DNA of 59,866 bases, taken from the NCBI GenBank assembly GCA_964572825.1, contig CAZNGS010000020.1, positions 1 to 59,866 of the forward strand, written 5' to 3'. The stretch comes from an uncultured candidatus Brocadiaceae bacterium. GTDB taxonomy: Bacteria; Planctomycetota; Brocadiia; SM23-32. The notes under the pieces were generated by a model that worked only from the letters and a program-made list of their open reading frames with translations, made no database searches and had not been told where the DNA came from. A program made the translations under genes and the position numbers. Below are positions 2,699 to 54,741 of this stretch, piece by piece; position 1 is the stretch's first letter, and every line of letters starts with the position of its first letter.

Positions 2699-2945
2699 GA
2701 CAGCCGGTCAACAGTCCTTCGCAAAGAAGAGATGGGCACAACGTAGAGTCAGGCAGGTTTGGGCACCAGATGCTCAAAGAACGAGATTGTAGGTGATTTC
2801 ATGGCGCTTGTCAAAAGGAATTTCGGGGACCTGGATTCAGAAGGGCCATCTGCCCGCCCTGGTGGGATCAGCGCCTTGCCCTTGACCCGGCCCGGAGAGG
2901 GTGATAATCTCGCATGCGCTGCCAGGTGCCGTCATGTTGGGAATT

Positions 2946-3022
2946 GGGCGGATAGCTCAGCCGGCCAGAGCGCTTGCCTTACAAGCAAGAGGTTCCGGGT
3001 TCGAATCCCGGTCCGCCCACCA
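2946..3022 (+). tRNA. tRNA-Val (anticodon TAC), with an encoded CCA end.
   Basis: Cloverleaf GGGCGGATAGCTCAGCCGG...TTCGAATCCCGGTCCGCCCACCA. The 7-bp acceptor stem pairs GGGCGGA with TCCGCCC. The anticodon loop is CTTACAA and a T-loop GGTTCGAATCC is present. Confidence 0.85.
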
Positions 3023-4429: not shown

Positions 4430-6790
4430 ATGAGCCACACACGTCAGCAGGCGGGCAAGGGTCCGCCCGAGGAGTCGTCCACGGGGGCTTCTGGCCGGGG
4501 AGGCATGGTGCCGCGGTGGGCCTGGATGGTGGTGGGCGTGGCTGCCGGGGTGGGAGCGCTGTTCCTGCTGCAGTTCTGGCTCCCGATCGACGATTACCTG
4601 AAAGCCTTCCTGTTGTGGACGCAGGAGGTTGGCTTTCCGGGCGCCCTCGTCCTGGGGCTGGTGTACGTGGTGGGGGCACTGGTGCTCTTCCCCGGCTCCG
4701 TGCTCAGCATGGGAGCGGGGTTTCTCTTCGGGCTGTTGTGGGGCACGGTGCTGGTCTCGGTGGCCAGCACGACGGCGGCCTGCCTCGCCTTCCTGATGGG
4801 CAGGAGCATCGGGCGGGGCTGGATAGCCGACAAGATACGGGGCAATCCCCGGTTCCGGGCCGTGGACCAGGCCGTCGGCCGGCAGGGGTTCAAGATCGTT
4901 TTCCTGATCCGCCTCAGCCCCCTGTTTCCCTACACTGTGCAGAACTACGCCTTCGGGCTCACGGACATAAAGTTCTGGAAATACGCCCTGGCCTCCTGGA
5001 TCGGCATGATTCCGGGCACGATCATGTACGTGTATTTCGGCTACGCAGCCAAGAGTATCGCACAGATCATCGCGGGGCGGGCCACCATGTCTACCCCGCA
5101 GAAGGTATTCCTGTGGGTCGGCCTGGCCCTTACGGTGGCGGTGGTGCTGTTTGTCACCCGCCTGGCCCGGGACGCCATCCGGGATGCGGTGGGAGAGGTC
5201 GAATCCGGGGAAGCCACACATCACGAAGACACCGCGGGGCACCGTCGTTCGCCCCGGCGCGCGCTGCCCGAGCTGGAAAAGCCCGAACTGGAGCCGATGG
5301 ACCAGCACAACCAGGAACTGCTGGAAGCCGTGGGACCGCCGGGCTGGCGCAATCGCGAACCCGACGGACGCTATAACCTGGCGGTGATCGGCGGCGGCAC
5401 GGCCGGATTGGTCTCAGCAGTCGGGGCGGCAGGTCTCGGGGCGAAGGTGGCGCTGATAGAGCGTCACATGCTGGGCGGCGACTGTTTGAACGTCGGCTGC
5501 GTGCCCTCAAAGTGCATCATCCGGTCCGCCCGCGCCTGCGCCGACGTGCGGCGCGCGGGACAGTACGGCATCCGCGTTCCCGACAATGTTGAGGTGGACT
5601 TCGCGGCCGTGATGGAGCGCATGCGCCGCCTGAGGGCCCGAGTAGCGCGGCACGACTCCGCCGCGAGGTTCCGCGACATGGGGGTGGACGTCTACCTGGG
5701 TGAGGGCAGATTCGTGGCCCACGACGCGGTGGAAGTGGGAGGGAGGCGACTGCGCTTCGCGAGGGCCATCATCGCCACCGGCTCGCGGGCACGCCGGCCG
5801 GACATCGAAGGGATCGAAGAGGCGGGCTACTACACCAATGAGACGATCTTCAACCTGACGGAGCGACCGGAGCGGCTGGCCGTGGTGGGCGGAGGTCCTC
5901 TGGGCTGTGAACTGGCCCAGGCCTTCCAGCGGCTGGGCAGCCGGGTTGTCATCGTCGAGCGGGCACCGCAGTTCCTGCGCCGGGAGGACCGGGACGCGGC
6001 GGACATTCTGGCCGAAGCCTTTCGGAGGGATGGAATCTCGGTGCGCCTCAACACAACCGTCGCCCGCGTGGAGGTCTCGGCGGGTGAGAAGGTACTTCAC
6101 CTGAACACGGGGGACGGAGAAGAGACGGTCACGGTGGACGAGATACTGGTCGGACTGGGCCGACAACCGACCCTGGCGGGACTGGACCTGGATGCGGGGG
6201 GCATCCGGTATGACCCGCGACAGGGAGTGTGGGTGGACGACCATCTGCGCACCTCCAACCGCCGCGTCTACGCGGCCGGGGACGTCTGCCTGCGCTACAA
6301 GTTCACCCATACGGCCGACATGACGGCCCGCCTGGCCCTTCAGAACGCCCTTTTCTGGGGACGCAAGAAAAAGAGCGTGCTGACCATCCCCTGGTGCACC
6401 TACACCGACCCCGAGATCGCGCACGTGGGCATGTATGAGAAGGATGCCGGGGCGAGGGGTATCGAGGTGGATACTTTCTCCGTGGACATGTCGGAGGTGG
6501 ACCGCGCCGTGACCGACGGCGAGACGCGGGGCTTCCTGAAGGTGCACGTCAGGAAGGGCACGGACAGGATACTGGGGGCCACGCTGGTGGCCCGGCACGC
6601 GGGCGAGATGATCAGCGAGGTCACCACCGCCATCGTGGGCGAGGTGGGACTTACAACCATGGCCAACGTCATACACCCCTACCCTACGCGGGCAGAGATC
6701 ATCCGCAAAGCGGCAGACGCCTGCAACCGCACCAGGTTGACGCCGGCCCTGCAGCGGTGGCTGAAGAGGTTGATGGCCTGGCGGCGGTAG
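4430..6790 (+). CDS. Bifunctional protein: a TVP38/TMEM64 (DedA-family) membrane domain fused to an FAD-dependent pyridine-nucleotide-disulfide oxidoreductase (mercuric-reductase/dihydrolipoamide-dehydrogenase-like).
   Basis: The N-terminal half has multiple TM helices with DedA-like motifs (FPGSVLSMGAGFLFG, LIRLSPLFPYTVQNYAFG). The C-terminal half has GGGTAGLVSA, a GGDCLNVGCVPSK redox-active disulfide, an NADH-binding GGGPLGCE motif, and a dimerisation domain. The start was chosen at the MSHTRQQ ATG, so the long upstream ORF extension is probably non-coding. Confidence 0.75.
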   Translation: MSHTRQQAGKGPPEESSTGASGRGGMVPRWAWMVVGVAAGVGALFLLQFWLPIDDYLKAFLLWTQEVGFPGALVLGLVYVVGALVLFPGSVLSMGAGFLFGLLWGTVLVSVASTTAACLAFLMGRSIGRGWIADKIRGNPRFRAVDQAVGRQGFKIVFLIRLSPLFPYTVQNYAFGLTDIKFWKYALASWIGMIPGTIMYVYFGYAAKSIAQIIAGRATMSTPQKVFLWVGLALTVAVVLFVTRLARDAIRDAVGEVESGEATHHEDTAGHRRSPRRALPELEKPELEPMDQHNQELLEAVGPPGWRNREPDGRYNLAVIGGGTAGLVSAVGAAGLGAKVALIERHMLGGDCLNVGCVPSKCIIRSARACADVRRAGQYGIRVPDNVEVDFAAVMERMRRLRARVARHDSAARFRDMGVDVYLGEGRFVAHDAVEVGGRRLRFARAIIATGSRARRPDIEGIEEAGYYTNETIFNLTERPERLAVVGGGPLGCELAQAFQRLGSRVVIVERAPQFLRREDRDAADILAEAFRRDGISVRLNTTVARVEVSAGEKVLHLNTGDGEETVTVDEILVGLGRQPTLAGLDLDAGGIRYDPRQGVWVDDHLRTSNRRVYAAGDVCLRYKFTHTADMTARLALQNALFWGRKKKSVLTIPWCTYTDPEIAHVGMYEKDAGARGIEVDTFSVDMSEVDRAVTDGETRGFLKVHVRKGTDRILGATLVARHAGEMISEVTTAIVGEVGLTTMANVIHPYPTRAEIIRKAADACNRTRLTPALQRWLKRLMAWRR

Positions 6791-40860: not shown

Positions 40861-41701
40861 TCAGAAAAACTCCGCTCCCGCGCAGCGCGCGCAGATGAAA
40901 TCGCCTCCGGGCATCATGTAACCCCCCTGCGCCAGCCGGATGACCCTTCCACATTCGGCGCAGTGCGTGGGCTCATAGTCCGGCGGGTTCTCCAGCTTCT
41001 CGAAGTTCCACTCGTTGGTCCGGCGTGCACGTGCTGCTCGGTGGTGACGTAGAAATCGCGGCATTCCTCACACTCTTTCCAATCGCCCCCATGCCCCTCC
41101 GCGTGGTGTACGCCGCAGACGGTGTAGCGCCTGTGGTTTCGATGGCAACTGTTCCGGGCGTAGGAGAAGAACCTGTAAGTCCATTCATCATCGCAGATCC
41201 AGTTATCGCAGCACTCCGTGCGGGTCAGGTTGATCGTGTTGCCGCACAACCCGCATTTGGGGCGACCCTGTCCCGTGGCTGCCGCGTCTTCTTCCAGTTC
41301 GGCCAGTTGCCGGGCCCATCCGTCCAGGTTCGCCTCTTCCTCCGGCATGTAGCCCGTCTGCTGCAGAGCGTCGGCCAGAGTGTCCCGGCGAATTGGGCCT
41401 TCAAGCCCCCCTGCGAGGCCGCCAAATCCCTGGCCGCATTTGCCCGGGCCTGCCGGTCGCTCTCAGAACGTCGTTCAGGGTTGACGAAGAGGGTCTGCCG
41501 GGATTGCTCCCGGCCCGACCCCCGGCGACGGAGGCGGATGGCCGGCGCATAGCCGCCCTGCGGGTCCCGGCAACTCTCCGGTTCCACCGGCCGATTCCCC
41601 GAGCGAGCGGGCCGCACCTTCAAGAGGCAGCAATGCTTATACTTCTTGCCGCTGCGGCACGGGCACGGGTCATTCCGGCGGACTTTCTTCTCCATCTGCA
41701 T
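40861..41701 (-). pseudogene. Cys-rich protein with an N-terminal SEC-C metal-binding motif. It is split across three frames, by frameshift or assembly indels.
   Basis: Piece 1 is MQMEKKVRRNDPCPCRSGKKYKHCC (SEC-C motif). Piece 2 is MPEEEANL...CGLCGNT...CCDNWICDDEW...CGVHHAEGHGGDWKECEECRDFY. Piece 3 is ...THCAECGRVIRLAQGGYMMPGGDFICARCAGAEFF. The piece-1 to piece-2 junction coincides with a C6 homopolymer (~41407-41412). Confidence 0.3.
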
Positions 41702-41851
41702 TTCGCCAAACAGATGAAGTAAATCCTGCCTTCCGCACCGTCACGTGAATCATAAGACACGCGTCGCGCGCTGCCAAATCCATGTGCGTTGGCGGGGCCC
41801 CTCTGCCCGGAGAGACTGCCCCGGCATCGAGGGATGAGCCTGCCCGGTGCT

Positions 41852-42000
41852 CTGGACCCATGCACGTCCGGGCGGGAAGTTGGAGGGACCCGCTCTGTCG
41901 CGTCCGAGCCCCCTGGACCAATGCACGCCGGGGCGGGAAGTTGGAGGGACGCGCTCTGTCGCGTCCGAGCCCCCTGGACCAATGCACGCCGGGGCGGGAA
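41852..42000. repeat. Tandem direct repeat of about 61 bp (~2.4 copies). Each copy has a perfect hairpin GGACGCG-CTCTGT-CGCGTCC.
   Basis: Units span 41852-41912, 41913-41973 and a partial 41974-~42000. Copies are >90% identical (CTGGACCAATGCACGCCGGGGCGGGAAGTTGGAGGGACGCGCTCTGTCGCGTCCGAGCCCC). Confidence 0.6.
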
Positions 42001-42034
42001 ACCCGACAGCGCCCAGGGGCCGCCGGCGATTGGC

Positions 42035-42063
42035 TTGACAGTCCGGCGGGGGGGCTGTATATT
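42035..42063 (+). promoter_or_regulatory. Sigma70-type promoter upstream of gap: TTGACA, a 17-nt spacer, then TATATT.
   Basis: The -35 TTGACA (42035-42040) and the -10 TATATT (42058-42063) are exact consensus with ideal spacing, about 125 nt upstream of the gap ATG. An AAAGGAG RBS sits at 42171-42177. Confidence 0.5.
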
Positions 42064-42187
42064 CAATCTTCTGACGGGGGCATTGCGCCGGGTTGCTGCC
42101 TCTCCCCGAGGTTTGCCCCGGACCGTGCATTCTCAAGTGCCCTGGCTGTCTACTCAATTCTTGAATCGCTGAAAGGAGCCGCACAGC

Positions 42188-43201
42188 ATGGCTATCAGGG
42201 TCGGCATTAACGGTTTTGGAAGGATCGGACGGCTGGTCTTCCGCGTGCTGATGGAGCGCGACAATTTCGAGGTCGTGGCGGTCAACGACCTGGCCGACGC
42301 GGAGACGCTGGCCTACCTGTTGGAGTATGACAGCGTCCACGGCCGGTATCCCGGCACGGTGGAAGTGGACGGCGAGAACCTGGTGGTGGACGGCACGAGC
42401 GTGCCCGTGCTCACCGTGATGAACCCCAAGGAGCTGCCCTGGGAGGAGGAAGACGTTTACTTCGCCGTCGAGGCCACGGGGGTGTTTCGCACGCGCACCG
42501 GCGAGAAGGGCGGCTACGGCGACCACCTGGAGGCCGGCGCCCAGAAGGTGCTGCTCACCGTGCCCGCCAAGGACGAGGTGGACGCCACCATCGTGCTGGG
42601 CGTAAATGACGACCTGCTGACCCCCGACGACCGCTGCATCTCGAACGCCTCCTGCACCACCAACTGCCTGGGTCCCGTGGCCAAGGTGCTGAACGACAAC
42701 TTCGGCATCGTCCACGGCCTGATGACCACCTGTCACGGCTACACCAACGACCAGGTGACCTGCGACCAGATTCACAGCAAGCTGGCCCGTGGCCGGGCCG
42801 CGGCCATCAACATCATCCCCACCACCACCGGCGCCGCCAAGGCCATCGGCAAGGCCATCCCCGAGTTGGAGGGAAACCTGGACGGCATGGCCATGCGGGT
42901 GCCCGTGCCCGACGGTTCCGTGGTGGACCTGGTGGCGGAGTGCAAGAAAGAGGTCAGCGTGGAGGCCGTCAACGCCGCCGCGAAGGAAGCCGCCGAGGGC
43001 CCGATGAAGGGGATTTTGAAATACACCGAGGACCCCGTGGTCAGCACCGACTGCATCCACGACCCGCACAGCGCCATATTCTGCGCTGAAAACACGATGG
43101 TCGTGGCCGACAGGATGGTCAAGGCGGTGGCCTTCTACGACAACGAGTGGGGCTACTCCAACCGCGTCGTGGACCTGATGGACATGGCGGCCAACATGTG
43201 A
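42188..43201 (+). CDS. gap: Glyceraldehyde-3-phosphate dehydrogenase.
   Basis: The N-terminus is VGINGFGRIGR. The active site is ASCTTNCL. A GAPDH length of 337 aa. Confidence 0.9.
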   Translation: MAIRVGINGFGRIGRLVFRVLMERDNFEVVAVNDLADAETLAYLLEYDSVHGRYPGTVEVDGENLVVDGTSVPVLTVMNPKELPWEEEDVYFAVEATGVFRTRTGEKGGYGDHLEAGAQKVLLTVPAKDEVDATIVLGVNDDLLTPDDRCISNASCTTNCLGPVAKVLNDNFGIVHGLMTTCHGYTNDQVTCDQIHSKLARGRAAAINIIPTTTGAAKAIGKAIPELEGNLDGMAMRVPVPDGSVVDLVAECKKEVSVEAVNAAAKEAAEGPMKGILKYTEDPVVSTDCIHDPHSAIFCAENTMVVADRMVKAVAFYDNEWGYSNRVVDLMDMAANM

Positions 43202-43288: not shown

Positions 43289-44458
43289 ATGAAGACAATC
43301 CGAGACTTCGAAGACCGATTGAGCGGCAGCCGGCTGCTGATGCGGGTGGACTTCAACGTGCCGCTCGATAAGGAGACCGGCCAGATCACCAATGATCTGC
43401 GCATCCGCCGCGCCCTGCCCACCATCGAGTTCGCCCGGGATCGCGGCGCCCGCGTGGTCCTTATGAGCCACCTGGGCCGCCCCGGCGGCGAGCGCGATGA
43501 AGACCTTAGCCTCCGCCCCGTAGCGGAGCGATTGGGCGAACTGCTCGGCTCGAAAGTCGCCTTCGCCCCGGACTGCGTCGGGGCCGTCGCCCGGGAGGCC
43601 GTGGCCGCCCTGCGGGACGGCGACGTCCTGATGCTGGAGAACACCCGTTTCCACGACGGAGAGAAGGCAAACGACCCCGAGTTTGCCCGGCGGCTCGCCT
43701 CCCTGGCGGACACGTACGTCAACGACGCTTTCGGCACCGTGCACAGGGCCCACGCCTCGACGGCGGGTGTGGCGGAGCACCTGCCCGCGGCGGCGGGGTT
43801 CCTGATCGAGAAGGAGGTGCAGTACCTGTCCCGCGCCACGCAGAACCCCGAGCACCCCTACGTGGCCGTCATGGGCGGCGCCAAGGTGTCCGACAAGATC
43901 CAGGTCATCCGCAACCTGCTGGACAAGGTGGACGCCATGTTGGTCGGCGGGGCGATGGCGTACACGTTCCTGAAGCAGCAGGGCGTCGGGGTCGGCAACT
44001 CCCTGGTGGAAGGCGACAGGCTGGAGGTGGCGGCGGCGCTGCTGGAGGAGGCCGGCGACAAGATCGTGCTGCCGTGCGACCACGTCTGCGCGCGCGACAT
44101 CGATGCCGATGCCGAAGCCGGGACCTTCGACGTCGAAGTCCCCGACGGCTGGATCGGCCTGGACATCGGTCCGAAGACCGCGCAGGCGTTCACTGACCGA
44201 ATTGCCGGTGCTGCGCTGGTCACCTGGAACGGCCCGCTGGGATACTTCGAGATCGACAGGTTCAGCGAAGGCACGCGCGCCGTGGCGCAGGCCCTGGCCG
44301 ACTCGGGCGCGGTGAGCATCGTGGGGGGCGGGGAGACCGCCGAGGCCGTCGAGGAGCTCGGCCTGCAGGACCGGATCAGCCACGTCTCCACCGGCGGCGG
44401 GGCCTCGCTGGCATTCCTGGGCGGCGAGGAGCTGCCCGGCATCGCGGCCCTCCAGTGA
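43289..44458 (+). CDS. pgk: Phosphoglycerate kinase.
   Basis: RVDFNVPLD, MSHLGRPGG and the C-terminal GGGASLAFL motifs in 389 aa. Confidence 0.9.
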   Translation: MKTIRDFEDRLSGSRLLMRVDFNVPLDKETGQITNDLRIRRALPTIEFARDRGARVVLMSHLGRPGGERDEDLSLRPVAERLGELLGSKVAFAPDCVGAVAREAVAALRDGDVLMLENTRFHDGEKANDPEFARRLASLADTYVNDAFGTVHRAHASTAGVAEHLPAAAGFLIEKEVQYLSRATQNPEHPYVAVMGGAKVSDKIQVIRNLLDKVDAMLVGGAMAYTFLKQQGVGVGNSLVEGDRLEVAAALLEEAGDKIVLPCDHVCARDIDADAEAGTFDVEVPDGWIGLDIGPKTAQAFTDRIAGAALVTWNGPLGYFEIDRFSEGTRAVAQALADSGAVSIVGGGETAEAVEELGLQDRISHVSTGGGASLAFLGGEELPGIAALQ

Positions 44459-45138
44459 GCACACCCATGCAGATAAAGATCGCTCCATCCATCCTCGATT
44501 GTGATCTGACCAGGCTGCGCGAGTCCATCGCCGAGGTGGAGGAAGCCGGCGTGGACCTGCTGCACGTGGACGTGGCGGACGGCCATTTCGTGCCCAACAT
44601 CATGTCCGGCGCCCGCCTGACGGCGGCGGTGGCGCGGTGCGCGACCGTGCCCGTGGACGTGCACCTGATGATCAGCGACCCCGTCAAGTATGCACCGCGC
44701 TTCATCGAGGCCGGGGCGGAGATCGTGCTGTTCCACGCCGAGGCCGTAGCCGACGTCTCTGCCGTGGCCCGCATCATCCGCGACCTGGGCGCGCGGGTCG
44801 GTGTCGCGCTGAAGCCGGATACCCCGGCGGAAGCCGTGGAATCAGCGGTGGGCGAGCTGGACTGCCTGATGGCCATGACGGTCCGGCCCGGCTTCAGCGG
44901 GCAGAGCTTTATGGAAGAAGGCTGCCGAAAGGTCCCCGCGTTGCGCGATATGTTCGGATCCGATATAGATATCTACGTCGATGGCGGGATAAGCGCCGAT
45001 ACGGCCGGCATCACCGTAAGCTACGGGGCCAACGTCATGGCGGCGGCCTCGGCCATCTTCGACACGGATGTTCCCCCGGGCGAGGCGGTGGTGCGGCTCA
45101 GAGAGGCGGCGCGACGGGCGCTGGAAGACACCGCGTAA
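44455..45138 (+). CDS. rpe: Ribulose-phosphate 3-epimerase.
   Basis: APSILDCDLTRL, HVDVADGHFVPNI, DVHLMI, RPGFSGQSF, VDGGI and AASAIF align with the E. coli Rpe motifs. Confidence 0.85.
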   Translation: MSTPMQIKIAPSILDCDLTRLRESIAEVEEAGVDLLHVDVADGHFVPNIMSGARLTAAVARCATVPVDVHLMISDPVKYAPRFIEAGAEIVLFHAEAVADVSAVARIIRDLGARVGVALKPDTPAEAVESAVGELDCLMAMTVRPGFSGQSFMEEGCRKVPALRDMFGSDIDIYVDGGISADTAGITVSYGANVMAAASAIFDTDVPPGEAVVRLREAARRALEDTA

Positions 45139-52177: not shown

Positions 52178-53378
52178 ATGAAATGGGAGGACCGGGCGGA
52201 ACTGGCCTTCCGCATCGCGGGCGTCTACCTTCTGACCCTGGGCCTTGTACGAGGGGAATCTCTTGTGTCCCGCCTGGAGGCGCTCTTGACCCCGGGCGGG
52301 CCTCATGATGTGCTGGCCTGGAGTGGCGTAGCTGTATTTGTGGCCGTTCCGGTGCTCGGATTCCTATTAATGACGTGGGGCAAAGCACCGGCGCGGTGGT
52401 TAATCACCCGACATCCCCGTCCGGTGACACGGTTTCAAGAGGACCTATCTATGGGATTCGTGCTGTTGGGGTGCCTGCTGGTCGGGGTGGCCGTTGCCTC
52501 GGCCCGTGGGTTTTCCGAAAGCCGCTCCCTGCTGTCGGAGTTGCCTACGTGCTGATCTGCGCTCTCCCCGGCGTCCTGCTTGTCGCCCTGAACAGGCGGT
52601 TGGCACTGCACGTGGCGAAGTGGTTGAGGGAGACGACGGCCCCCGGGACGTCGCGTTTCGCACCGGTGCTCGCCATCGAGGTTCTGCTGCTGGGGGTATA
52701 CTATGGGGTTCACTTCACCGTACGTGTAGTGGGCGGCGTCCGGCAGTTGATCTCGGTGCGGTCCCAAAGCCTGACGCCGGAGGTGCAGGAGCAGGTGTGG
52801 CTGGTGGCCCACGCGGCTCTTTCCTTTCTGCGGGCTGCGGTGGCTATTCTCATCGCTCTCTGCGCCGGGAAACTGGCCGTCCTGATGACGGGCAAGCCGG
52901 AGCGCGTTCGCGGGGGCGCCTGCTTCTGGAGGTCGGCATCACCCTGGTTGCGGTGCGCTGGATGCTGCGCCTTCCCGCGCGATGGGCGATCGGGGTGGCC
53001 GGCGGCGGCCTTTTCGTCCGTTGGTTGGTCGGTGTCCTCGTCGCCGCCGTCCTGCTGGTCCTGGCCGGTGACCTGGCAAGATGGCTCCTACCAGGGAATG
53101 GAGGTCCTGATGCCCCCGATCGGGCACGGCGCAGAAGGGTGCTGCAACCGTGGCTGGTGTTCCTGGGCTTCCTGGTTCTGTTTGGCAGCCCTCACGTGTT
53201 GCCACTGGCGATGTCGGTTTCAAGACGCCTCCAGGGTCTCGAAGTAGCTACGTGGCCCCTGATTGCCCGTTTCGTGCCGTGGGTGGGCGGCCTCACGCTG
53301 ATCCTGGCCGCCGGACCGCTTTCGAGGCTGTTGTCGTTTGGGCCGCTGTTAGGTCGGCGGAAAGAACCGAACGGTTGA
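52178..53378 (+). CDS. Polytopic membrane protein whose reading switches frame twice. The second switch is at a G5 run, consistent with indel errors.
   Basis: Three successive hydrophobic ORF segments lie in frames A (52178-~52530), B (~52530-~52920) and C (~52920-53378). Each is TM-rich (LAFRIAGVYLLTLGL..., VAYVLICALPGVLLVAL..., LLEVGITLVAVRWML...LVGVLVAAVLLVLAG...). The B to C junction sits at the GCGGGGGCGCC run. Confidence 0.35.
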
Positions 53379-53424
53379 GTGGACGGCGGACGCGACGGAG
53401 CGCGTCCCTCCAACGGCAACGGCC

Positions 53425-54741
53425 TCAGCCCGAGGTCACGCCGTAGAGGTTCCGGGCGGTGCGGATGAACAGGCGGCCGCCGCTGACGGAGATGGTGGCC
53501 TGGCAGGGGCCTTCGCCGGTCTCCAGCCGGGAGAGCTCCCGGAATTCATCCCCCGCCGCGAGCACGAAGACCGTGCCCCGTTTGTCGATCAGGTATATCT
53601 TCCCGTCGGCGCCGGTGGGCGAGGCGCGGAACGGTCCCCTGCCCTCCAGCTTGTGGTGCCAGATGACGCGGCCGGTCTTAGGCTCCGCGCAGGCCATCTC
53701 GCGCTTGCCGTCGTGCAGAAAGTAGATGCGCCCCCGGTAGAGCAGCGGCGTGGTGACGTCCGGGGTGAACTCCCCGTGCTGCCAGGCCAGCCAATCGTTT
53801 GACAGTTCGCCTTTGCCTCCCGTCTTCAGGGCGAAGAGGGGCCGGTGCCGGGGCCGAACCACGAAGATCAGCCCGTGCCCCACCACGGGGGAGGTCACGA
53901 TGCGCTGCCATATCTTGCGGTCCGGCGGGGTGAACCACCACCGCCACAGCTCGGCGCCGGTGGCGGCGTCATGGCCCGTCACGCACTCCCCGGCCGCCAG
54001 GATGATCTCTTTGCGCCCCGCCTCCTCGCAGGGCATGGGGGTGATGTAGGCCTCCAGCGACTCGTCCTCGGCGTCGGTGGGCCGCGCCTGTCGCCACAGC
54101 GTCTTGCCGGTCTCCGGGTCGAGCGCCAGCAGGAAGGATTCCAGCGGACCCTCGCGCGCGTCCTCGCGCTTGTAGCGGCCGGGTGTCTCGTTCTGGAGCA
54201 CCGGTATGTAGAGCCGTCCCTCGTAGAGCAGCGGGCTGGAGCTGTAGCCGAATTTGATCACGAAATTGCCGTAGTCCTCCTCCAGGTCCCGGCGCCAGAG
54301 CTGGTTACCCTCCAGATCGAAGGTCACCAGCACTCCCGTGCCGAAAAAGAAGTGCACCCTTTGCCCGTCCGTGACCGCCGGGGGCGTGGATGCGTTGTTA
54401 CCGCCCATCATTTTGCGGTTTTTGCCGCAGACTTTCTGCCACCGCACCTCGCCGGCCGAGGCATCCACGCAGAACGCCAGCAGCTCGTCCGTCTCGCTGT
54501 CCAGGGAGGTCACAAAGACGCGGTTCTCCCATATGACGGGCGTGGAGTACGCCGGGCCCGGCATGGGGGTGTTCCAGACGTTGCGGCCGTCCATGTTCCA
54601 TGATTCGGGCAGGCCGGACTGGCCGGTGGACCCGTTGAGGCGCGGCCCGCGCCACTGCGGCCAGTTCTCCCCGAACGCTGCTCCGCCCGCCAGGACGAAA
54701 CAGACGCAGGTTGCGACGGTCAACAACCTTCCCATCTTCAC
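53425..54741 (-). CDS. Secreted PQQ-like beta-propeller repeat protein (BamB-like fold).
   Basis: Signal peptide MKMGRLLTVATCVCFVLAGGAAFG. Repeated W..G....STP..........G.L.A.D..TG..W motifs (NWPQWRGPRLNGST..., GEVRWQ, GNQLWRR, GKTLWRQ, GAELWRW, GRVIWHH). Confidence 0.75.
   Translation of the reverse strand: MKMGRLLTVATCVCFVLAGGAAFGENWPQWRGPRLNGSTGQSGLPESWNMDGRNVWNTPMPGPAYSTPVIWENRVFVTSLDSETDELLAFCVDASAGEVRWQKVCGKNRKMMGGNNASTPPAVTDGQRVHFFFGTGVLVTFDLEGNQLWRRDLEEDYGNFVIKFGYSSSPLLYEGRLYIPVLQNETPGRYKREDAREGPLESFLLALDPETGKTLWRQARPTDAEDESLEAYITPMPCEEAGRKEIILAAGECVTGHDAATGAELWRWWFTPPDRKIWQRIVTSPVVGHGLIFVVRPRHRPLFALKTGGKGELSNDWLAWQHGEFTPDVTTPLLYRGRIYFLHDGKREMACAEPKTGRVIWHHKLEGRGPFRASPTGADGKIYLIDKRGTVFVLAAGDEFRELSRLETGEGPCQATISVSGGRLFIRTARNLYGVTSG

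Follow-up and report, generated by a model that had tools for sequence, protein, structure and literature searches.

REP elements, which occur as inverted dimers and are accompanied by a cognate RAYT transposase, are defined as stem-loops that carry a 5′ GT[AG]G tag (PMC3733652, PMC6006769). The best-described systems are the REP/BIME elements of E. coli with their RAYT (TnpA_REP, YafM) and the REPIN-RAYT systems of Pseudomonas, the latter being described as lineage-specific and vertically inherited. The REP/BIME elements of E. coli are bound by IHF, DNA polymerase I, and gyrase (PMC6006769). Two further groups are among the closest known systems. Among the tagged stem-loops of the GTAG and CGTC super-families, the families GTAG-17 to GTAG-22 are the REPs of Opitutus terrae and Rhodopirellula baltica, and the tag variants listed in that study are GYAG, GYRG, GTRG, GTMG, and GTGG, with GGAG not among them (Di Nocera et al. 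2013, PMC3733652). The class 3 TnpA_Y1 enzymes of Planctomycetes and Acidobacteria, in turn, are associated with "atypical secondary structures" whose foot is CnGA, and they carry a Y----Q motif (Quentin et al. 2018, PMC6006769).

Here, a single contig of 59,866 bp from a metagenome-type assembly, referred to as the window, was analyzed with respect to a tandem hairpin repeat located upstream of the genes gap, pgk, and rpe, and the repeat was compared with the systems outlined above.

Structure of the 61-bp tandem array

Tandem Repeats Finder detected a single strong tandem array across the window, located at positions 41852-42000 and characterized by a period of 61, 2.4 copies, 95% matches, and a score of 270. 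An independent repeat search returned the 61-bp array in the identical register, and the number of such matches expected by chance, as determined with shuffled sequences, was 0; the 61-bp unit and the number of about 2.4 copies given in a preliminary description of the locus were thus confirmed by both programs. The array consists of copy 1 (41852..41912, plus strand, 61 bp), copy 2 (41913..41973, plus strand, 61 bp), and a partial copy 3 (41974..42000, plus strand). Of the 61 positions, 4 distinguish copy 1 from copy 2; over its 27 nt, copy 3 agrees fully with copy 2. Each complete unit is composed of a locus-specific segment of 27 nt (X), the dinucleotide GT, a hairpin that is termed REP in the following, and the sequence GAGCCCC. 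The partial copy 3 comprises the locus-specific 27 nt without a hairpin, resulting in the overall order X-REP-X-REP-X.

The intact REP of copy 2 (41942..41966, plus strand) is made up of the T-GGAG tag, GGACGCG, the loop CTCTGT, and CGCGTCC, and it is identical to the A-type sequence that recurs in assemblies assigned to different phyla (see below). It has a perfect 7-bp stem and a 6-nt loop and folds with -8.5 kcal/mol as DNA (z = -2.55). The REP of copy 1 (41881..41905, plus strand) possesses the same tag, loop, and 3′ arm, but reads GGACCCG in the 5′ arm; it therefore contains one C·C mismatch in the stem, and its hairpin, at -3.0 kcal/mol, is no better than shuffled sequences. Consequently, the perfect 7-bp stem that had been ascribed to every copy is present in copy 2, whereas it is disrupted in copy 1 and copy 3 lacks a hairpin altogether, leaving only two hairpins in the array. 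Both are of the A type and are arranged head to tail, without an inverted B-type partner. A 195-nt region covering the array was no more stable than shuffles when folded as single-stranded DNA (z = +1.56). An Rfam search of the whole window at gathering thresholds yielded only the tRNA at 2946-3019, and a search of 41700-42200 with permissive E-values yielded two chance-level matches to eukaryotic families and no known RNA family. A CRISPR-like array was considered as well and rejected, since the "spacers" between the hairpins are themselves repeated.

The gap promoter and its surroundings

A promoter of the sigma70 type had been proposed for gap-pgk-rpe. The corresponding site, TTGACA-N17-TATATT at 42035..42063 (plus strand), matches the consensus at 11 of 12 positions, and the proposal was supported by the finding that the block and its 17-nt spacer are kept in every related gap locus fetched (see below). 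The distance between the end of the repeat and the -35 hexamer is 34 nt, which confirms the adjacency of the two elements. Another 124 nt separate the promoter from the ATG of gap, which encodes GAPDH (42188-43201, plus strand; Pfam Gp_dh_N/C) and is followed by pgk (43289-44458, plus strand; Pfam PGK), rpe, encoding ribulose-phosphate 3-epimerase (44455-45138, plus strand; Pfam Ribul_P_3_epim), and an accD-like gene. On the other side of the array, a divergent gene (41225..41701, minus strand) encodes a 158-aa protein with a SEC-C motif according to Pfam, and the promoter-like site of this gene, TTGGCA-N17-TATGAT (41749..41777, minus strand), matches the consensus at 10 of 12 positions. The array is thus flanked by two divergent promoter-like sites, and this position suggests that it is probably outside any transcript.

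The expectation that a consensus promoter would be uncommon at a G+C content of approximately 70% has to be qualified on two counts: the G+C content of the window is 67.1%, and sigma70-type sites with at most two mismatches are enriched within it (5 versus 0.21 expected). The gap promoter is one of two sites in the window with a single mismatch. The other one, TTGACA-17-TACAAT at 2786-2814 (minus strand), is oriented away from the tRNA gene at 2946-3019, from which it is separated by about 130 nt. UP elements are A/T-rich tracts located at about -40 to -60. The 34 nt that precede the -35 hexamer (42001-42034) contain 7 A/T (79% G+C), and the repeat behind this gap is itself G+C-rich; the suggestion that the repeat might serve as an UP-like element was for these reasons not supported.

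Comparison with related gap loci

For comparison, gap loci were used whose GAPDH is 83-89% identical to that of the window (L120-L122, L123, L124-L126, and L134). Where source names were given, the nearest GAPDH relatives were designated Pirellulaceae, Brocadiia, or Planctomycetes. L120-L124 and L134 all keep the promoter block GCTTGACAG-N-GTATA(T/G)T including the 17-nt spacer, the block reading GC-TTGACAG-N-GTATA(T/G)T in the relatives, and in the four aligned loci and L134 the hexamers and the spacer length are invariant or nearly so. The 61-bp repeat, in contrast, is absent upstream of gap in all five related loci, and none of them has a GGAG hairpin at this place. Retention of the promoter in relatives that lack the repeat argues that the gap promoter is ancestral and, as judged from the loci compared, the 61-bp repeat is specific to this lineage.

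The gene located upstream of the gap promoter differs wherever the sequence of the relatives reaches it, L123 starting too near gap. It is the SEC-C-motif gene in the window, an FAD-dependent oxidoreductase gene in L120, DprA in L124, and in L134 an ORF of the same orientation, the end of which falls within GATTAG immediately ahead of the -35 hexamer. When window positions 41702-42034 were compared with L120 2718-3000, L124 2550-3000, and L134 1-700, similarity was found to begin abruptly at GCGATTAGCTTGACA. This abrupt start, together with the exchange of the upstream genes, points to recurrent rearrangement, i.e., in these alignments the upstream edge of the gap promoter is a recurrent synteny breakpoint.

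Downstream of the promoter, much of the gap leader is retained in the closest relatives. The leader of about 117 nt (window 42064-42187; L120 2877-3000) has remained well conserved in the relative with 89% identity, e.g., in the pieces TCTGACGGGGGC, CCGAGGTTT, and CTCTACTCAAT; it gave no Rfam match, the alignment comprising close relatives only. In L123, whose GAPDH is 88% identical, a 125-aa gene of the PDDEXK_3 family is inserted between pgk and rpe (2595-2972).

Architecture of the GGAG hairpin family

The 24-nt core of the hairpin is T-GGAG-GGACGCG-CTCTGT-CGCGTCC, with a T preceding the tag. A strict scan yielded 250 instances, in which GGAG is followed by a 7-bp stem that starts with GG and ends with CC, the loop being CTCYGT or a close variant. 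GGAG was fixed by the search patterns, and its invariance is no independent result; the T before the tag, a base outside the search pattern, was found in 232 of the 250 strict instances. Compensated variation occurs at stem positions 3, 5, and 6, where ACGCG/CGCGT, CCACG/CGTGG, TCACG/CGTGA, ACGTG/CACGT, and other combinations were observed. To avoid circularity, 150 further instances were anchored on GGAGGG and the loop only, with the 3′ arm left free. In these, all seven stem pairs were formed in 132 cases and six of seven in 12, with the stem starting directly after GGAG. For 52 distinct sequences, 90.9% of the cells were paired (73.5% after shuffling), and the covariation score was 0.444 (0.141 after shuffling), a value reached by 0 of 500 shuffles; for slid registers, the score was at most 0.22. 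An interpretation as a MITE with terminal inverted repeats was discarded, because the compensatory changes lie within each hairpin and thus indicate selection on single stem-loops rather than on end pairing.

With respect to the arrangement of neighboring hairpins, 68 of 110 pairs were inverted with the tags facing outward and separated by gaps of 0-50 nt. These inverted pairs are nearly always heterodimers, in which one partner has the A stem (ACGCG) and the other the B stem (CCACG). Neighbors in the same orientation, the arrangement seen in the gap array, form a minority of 20 of the 110 pairs. By the measure of its sequences, the architecture of the hairpin family is that of REP/BIME/REPIN elements.

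In several genomes, the doublets are embedded in larger structures. In Desulfobacterales (L018, L026, L031-L033, L045, L069, L088, L097, and others; JAIPEL01, CAYPFH01), the A/B doublet is found within longer repeats of two types, namely ...GTTTGATCAA-N-TGAAACTT...GGT-[A]-GTGTTGCCAGCAATGACCCAATACC-[B]-AACCTCCAAAA and ...ATTGATGGGGCGCCGGTCGTATCGACCGTT-[A]-GACCGCGGGC-[B]-ATTTTTGGACTTTGACGGGACC, many of which are situated at contig ends, so that the assemblies are broken there. In L002, L041, L083, L085, L099, and L103 (OW818680.1, ELA183, bin-0330), the A and B hairpins abut with a 0-nt gap and form the center of a longer palindrome made of GGAATGTTGGAATA-type repeats, a situation reminiscent of Anabaena, in which REP dimers have been described as insertions in long palindromes (PMC3733652). 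Finally, L068 of Planctomycetaceae contains at 1322-1740 a tandem array with a unit of about 129 bp, consisting of A/B doublets plus spacer and interrupted by a run of N, which is another case of local amplification of GGAG hairpins.

Distribution of the hairpin family

An exact-pattern scan for GGAGGGACNCGCTCTGTCGCGTCC, with one genome per species, revealed matches in at least 119 loci, and about 53 assemblies are represented among the matches listed. The main labels among these listed matches are Planctomycetota (Planctomycetaceae, Pirellulales, Brocadiia), Verrucomicrobiota, Lentisphaerae, Kiritimatiellae, and Desulfobacterales/Syntrophales, supplemented by single assemblies labeled Ignavibacteriae, Eisenbacteria, Fermentibacteria, and Alistipes; all labels were taken over from the deposited metagenome-assembled genomes, in which contamination by mis-binning is possible. 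Several assemblies among the matches listed, e.g., JAIPEL01, CAYPFH01, OW818680.1, and SKYG40, contain multiple loci, and numerous matches to GGAGGGACNCGCTCTGTCGCGTCC are located at contig ends. The remaining 36-37 nt of the 61-bp unit, i.e., the part outside the REP, had no match in the 119 loci or in the metagenome collection. The whole unit was consequently rejected as a dispersed element, as only the hairpin core of 24-25 nt recurs.

Within the window, the degenerate family motif GGAGGGNCNYGYTYYRTCRNGNCC has a chance expectation of 0.15 matches, even with up to three mismatches allowed. A third REP copy, T-GGAGGGACGCGCTCCGTCGCGTCC, was found at 53388..53412 on the minus strand (24-nt core 53388-53411). 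It is a singleton and sits in the 46-nt spacer between two convergent ORFs (52494-53378, plus strand; 53425-54741, minus strand), bringing the total to three hairpin copies at two intergenic sites in 59.9 kb. The search for further copies of the 61-bp unit recommended in the preliminary description had therefore a divided outcome: the whole unit recurs neither in the 119 loci nor in the metagenome collection, and the hairpin core has a third copy in the window. This copy has the loop CTCCGT, nearly fills the spacer, and is not followed by a T-run. Spacers between convergent genes are a classical site of REPs, where a REP could act as a hairpin at the mRNA end or as a bidirectional terminator.

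Regarding the position of the family relative to genes, open frames with a length of 600 nt or more contained 44% of the instances versus 81% of random positions, so that the extragenic bias of the family, as deduced from these frames, is apparent in relative terms only. At the four additional loci with RAYT homologues described below, all copies adjoining called genes are intergenic. Some proteins or called genes (P0138, P0165, L130 1814-2326) are extended into, or made up entirely of, REP arrays, from which it follows that automated annotation is led by the hairpins to call spurious ORFs and to extend N termini.

Association with RAYT genes

In L047, which derives from a Verrucomicrobiota assembly, an ORF of 169 aa (4510-5019) is accompanied by arrays of A/B doublets on both sides. 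The encoded protein matched NCBIfam NF047646, REP-associated tyrosine transposase, with 83.4 bits (cut-off 80; E = 1.4e-23), gave a weak match to Pfam Y1_Tnp, and matched PDB entry 4ER8, the TnpA_REP protein of E. coli, with E = 8.7e-5, the HUH, WQ, and Y..NP motifs being aligned. At least 878 homologues were obtained at E <= 1e-5, many of which are called RayT by JGI. In an alignment of 14 homologues, no variation was seen in the HUH histidines, WQ, or Y...NP.

Four more loci with homologues (L127/L128, L129, L130/L131, and L132/L133) carry GGAG hairpins within about 100 nt of both gene ends, L129 featuring a variant with a longer stem. The REPtron layout, i.e., a small HUH/Y1 gene with hairpins on both sides, was thus present in all five RAYT loci examined, L047 included, and at all RAYT-flanking sites GGAG abuts the foot of the hairpin. 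The hairpin family (TGGAGGGACGCGCTCTGTCGCGTCC) is presumed to be the single-strand DNA substrate of RAYT (TnpA_REP, HUH/Y1), and the GGAG hairpins would be mobilized by this enzyme. Within the 59.9-kb window itself, no RAYT homologue was found.

A 177-aa Y1/RAYT-like gene with the motifs VVMPDHVHMI and YICRNPV was also observed in a Brocadiaceae locus (L074 2276-2809), its product being about 28% identical to the L047 enzyme. It was set aside as evidence, as the hairpins do not flank it in the sequence at hand. Positions 800-2300 of the same locus contain a different repeated G+C-rich sequence, ...GCATHQPRASHEPRVAQAPSPE..., in spurious ORFs.

Relationship to described systems

The GGAG family has several properties in common with the systems of E. 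coli and Pseudomonas, namely a short stem-loop rich in G+C, at whose 5′ foot a conserved tetranucleotide stays unpaired, the clustering of copies, and the REPtron; numerous dispersed copies situated mostly between genes may be a further shared trait. The A/B inverted heterodimers resemble the Y and Z REPs of the E. coli BIMEs. In contrast to these systems, the tag is GGAG preceded by T, which departs from the canonical GT[AG]G tetranucleotide, and, unlike in E. coli and Pseudomonas, the copies at the gap locus are arranged head to tail, with a duplicated unique flank and without an inverted partner. The GTAG- and CGTC-tagged super-families (PMC3733652) likewise comprise tagged stem-loops with stems of 6-9 bp, occur in PVC bacteria, prefer head-to-head heterodimers, and rarely form head-to-tail dimers. 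No match was obtained when the translated hairpin was compared with the REP-encoded peptides of O. terrae and R. baltica listed in that paper.

A hairpin with a 5′ guide tetranucleotide that is recognized by an HUH enzyme of the Y1 type is also common to IS200/IS605, with their subterminal hairpins, and the class 3 TnpA_Y1 systems, such systems being present in Planctomycetes (PMC6006769). By their HUH, WQ, and Y...NP motifs, the enzymes found here are similar to class 2 TnpA_REP and unlike class 3 with its Y----Q motif. Unlike in IS200/IS605, no IS-like cargo is located between the hairpins. Literature searches with the motif as a string returned no paper, and searches joining RAYT to PVC taxa returned nothing relevant. 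In these searches and in the sources compared, no published description of a GGAG-tagged REP family with A and B stems and a cognate RAYT was found.

Discussion

We consider it likely that the array upstream of gap is a RAYT-associated REP with the non-canonical GGAG tag that was tandemly duplicated in situ together with its flank, and that it is most probably a passenger at the gap promoter. The REP is dispersed, and X is local and unique, which argues for tandem duplication of one inserted REP plus flank; repeated transposition is the less fitting alternative, given that the copies run head to tail, a B partner is missing, and copy 1 has decayed. The following course of events would account for the present structure. 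The REP family would have spread through bacteria of the PVC group, Desulfobacterota, and some other phyla, and one A-type REP would have settled immediately ahead of the conserved gap promoter, in a place where the gene order has repeatedly been broken. Together with about 36 nt of unique local flank, this REP would then have been amplified in tandem, presumably by slippage or unequal recombination between the 27-nt flanking X repeats, giving rise to X-REP-X-REP-X, and the older copy, copy 1, would have begun to decay. Since the relatives are able to drive the operon from the gap promoter without the array, the latter is considered a passenger with presumably little or no specific role for gap, i.e., its presence may be neutral for gap expression.

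Four other explanations were weighed. The array could be a contingency-type variable-number repeat, in which slippage tunes gap or the divergent promoter, and the 2.4 near-identical units, the identity of copies 2 and 3 over 27 nt, which suggests recent duplication, and the promoter-proximal location between two divergent promoters are in line with such a role. We nevertheless regard it as unlikely, because hexamers and spacer lie outside the repeat, so that changes in copy number shift distal upstream DNA only, and because relatives function without the repeat. A search of metagenome contigs with a repeat-specific or a promoter-specific pattern retrieved no conspecific contigs. It is rather improbable that the REP array has acquired a function as DNA, e.g., as a binding or cruciform site by which supercoiling between the divergent promoters is buffered. 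Although E. coli BIMEs bind gyrase and IHF (PMC6006769), and although the array is positioned exactly between the two promoter-like sites, the folding of the 195-nt region does not exceed that of shuffles, one of the two hairpins is disrupted, the inverted partner typical of BIMEs is missing, and the repeat is absent in relatives.

The preliminary description had proposed, among other options, iterated operator sites for a transcription factor controlling glycolytic genes. The short distance between repeat and -35 hexamer is compatible with operators, as is the motif GGGAC-N6-TGTC in each hairpin, which resembles a CggR operator half-site of Bacillus subtilis; this likeness was dismissed, as the motif is neither locus-specific nor kept at gap promoters. 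Such a function is very improbable in view of the five relatives that have the promoter without the repeats, the disrupted stem of copy 1, and the presence of the same hairpin core between unrelated convergent genes of the window, in at least 119 unrelated loci from many phyla, and next to transposase genes. Least probable of all is an artefact of collapse or expansion during assembly, which a single metagenome-derived contig and the many REP-type repeats that break assemblies elsewhere and end up at contig ends might suggest, but against which stand the 4 differences between copies 1 and 2, indicating that at least two distinct copies were read, and the length of the array, which spans only 149 bp within a contig that continues into unique sequence on both sides.

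For the gap locus, the duplicated REP means that the tempting reading as a glycolytic operator is removed and that the promoter alone is the conserved element. For annotators, it is a warning that such hairpins in PVC-group bacteria and Desulfobacterota are REP-type mobile DNA, which breaks assemblies, seeds spurious ORFs, and mimics regulatory sites.

For the family as a whole, the near-identical 24-nt sequences in assemblies labeled as several phyla contrast with REPIN-RAYT systems, which are described as lineage-specific, and if the taxon labels of the metagenome-assembled genomes hold, this cross-phylum distribution is unusual for REP-RAYT systems. Tentatively, and with considerable doubt, we propose that the GGAG hairpin and RAYT might constitute one REP/RAYT system, the 24-nt substrate of which is maintained nearly letter for letter across Planctomycetota, Verrucomicrobiota, Lentisphaerota, Kiritimatiellota, Desulfobacterota, and a few others. 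If true, this would imply either that REP-RAYT spread horizontally between phyla or that enzyme and substrate have been conserved together to an extreme degree over long times, and either route would argue against the lineage-specific and strictly vertical view of REPIN-RAYT. The family would then also offer a natural switch in specificity, GGAG versus GTAG, for studies of guide-sequence recognition by HUH enzymes.
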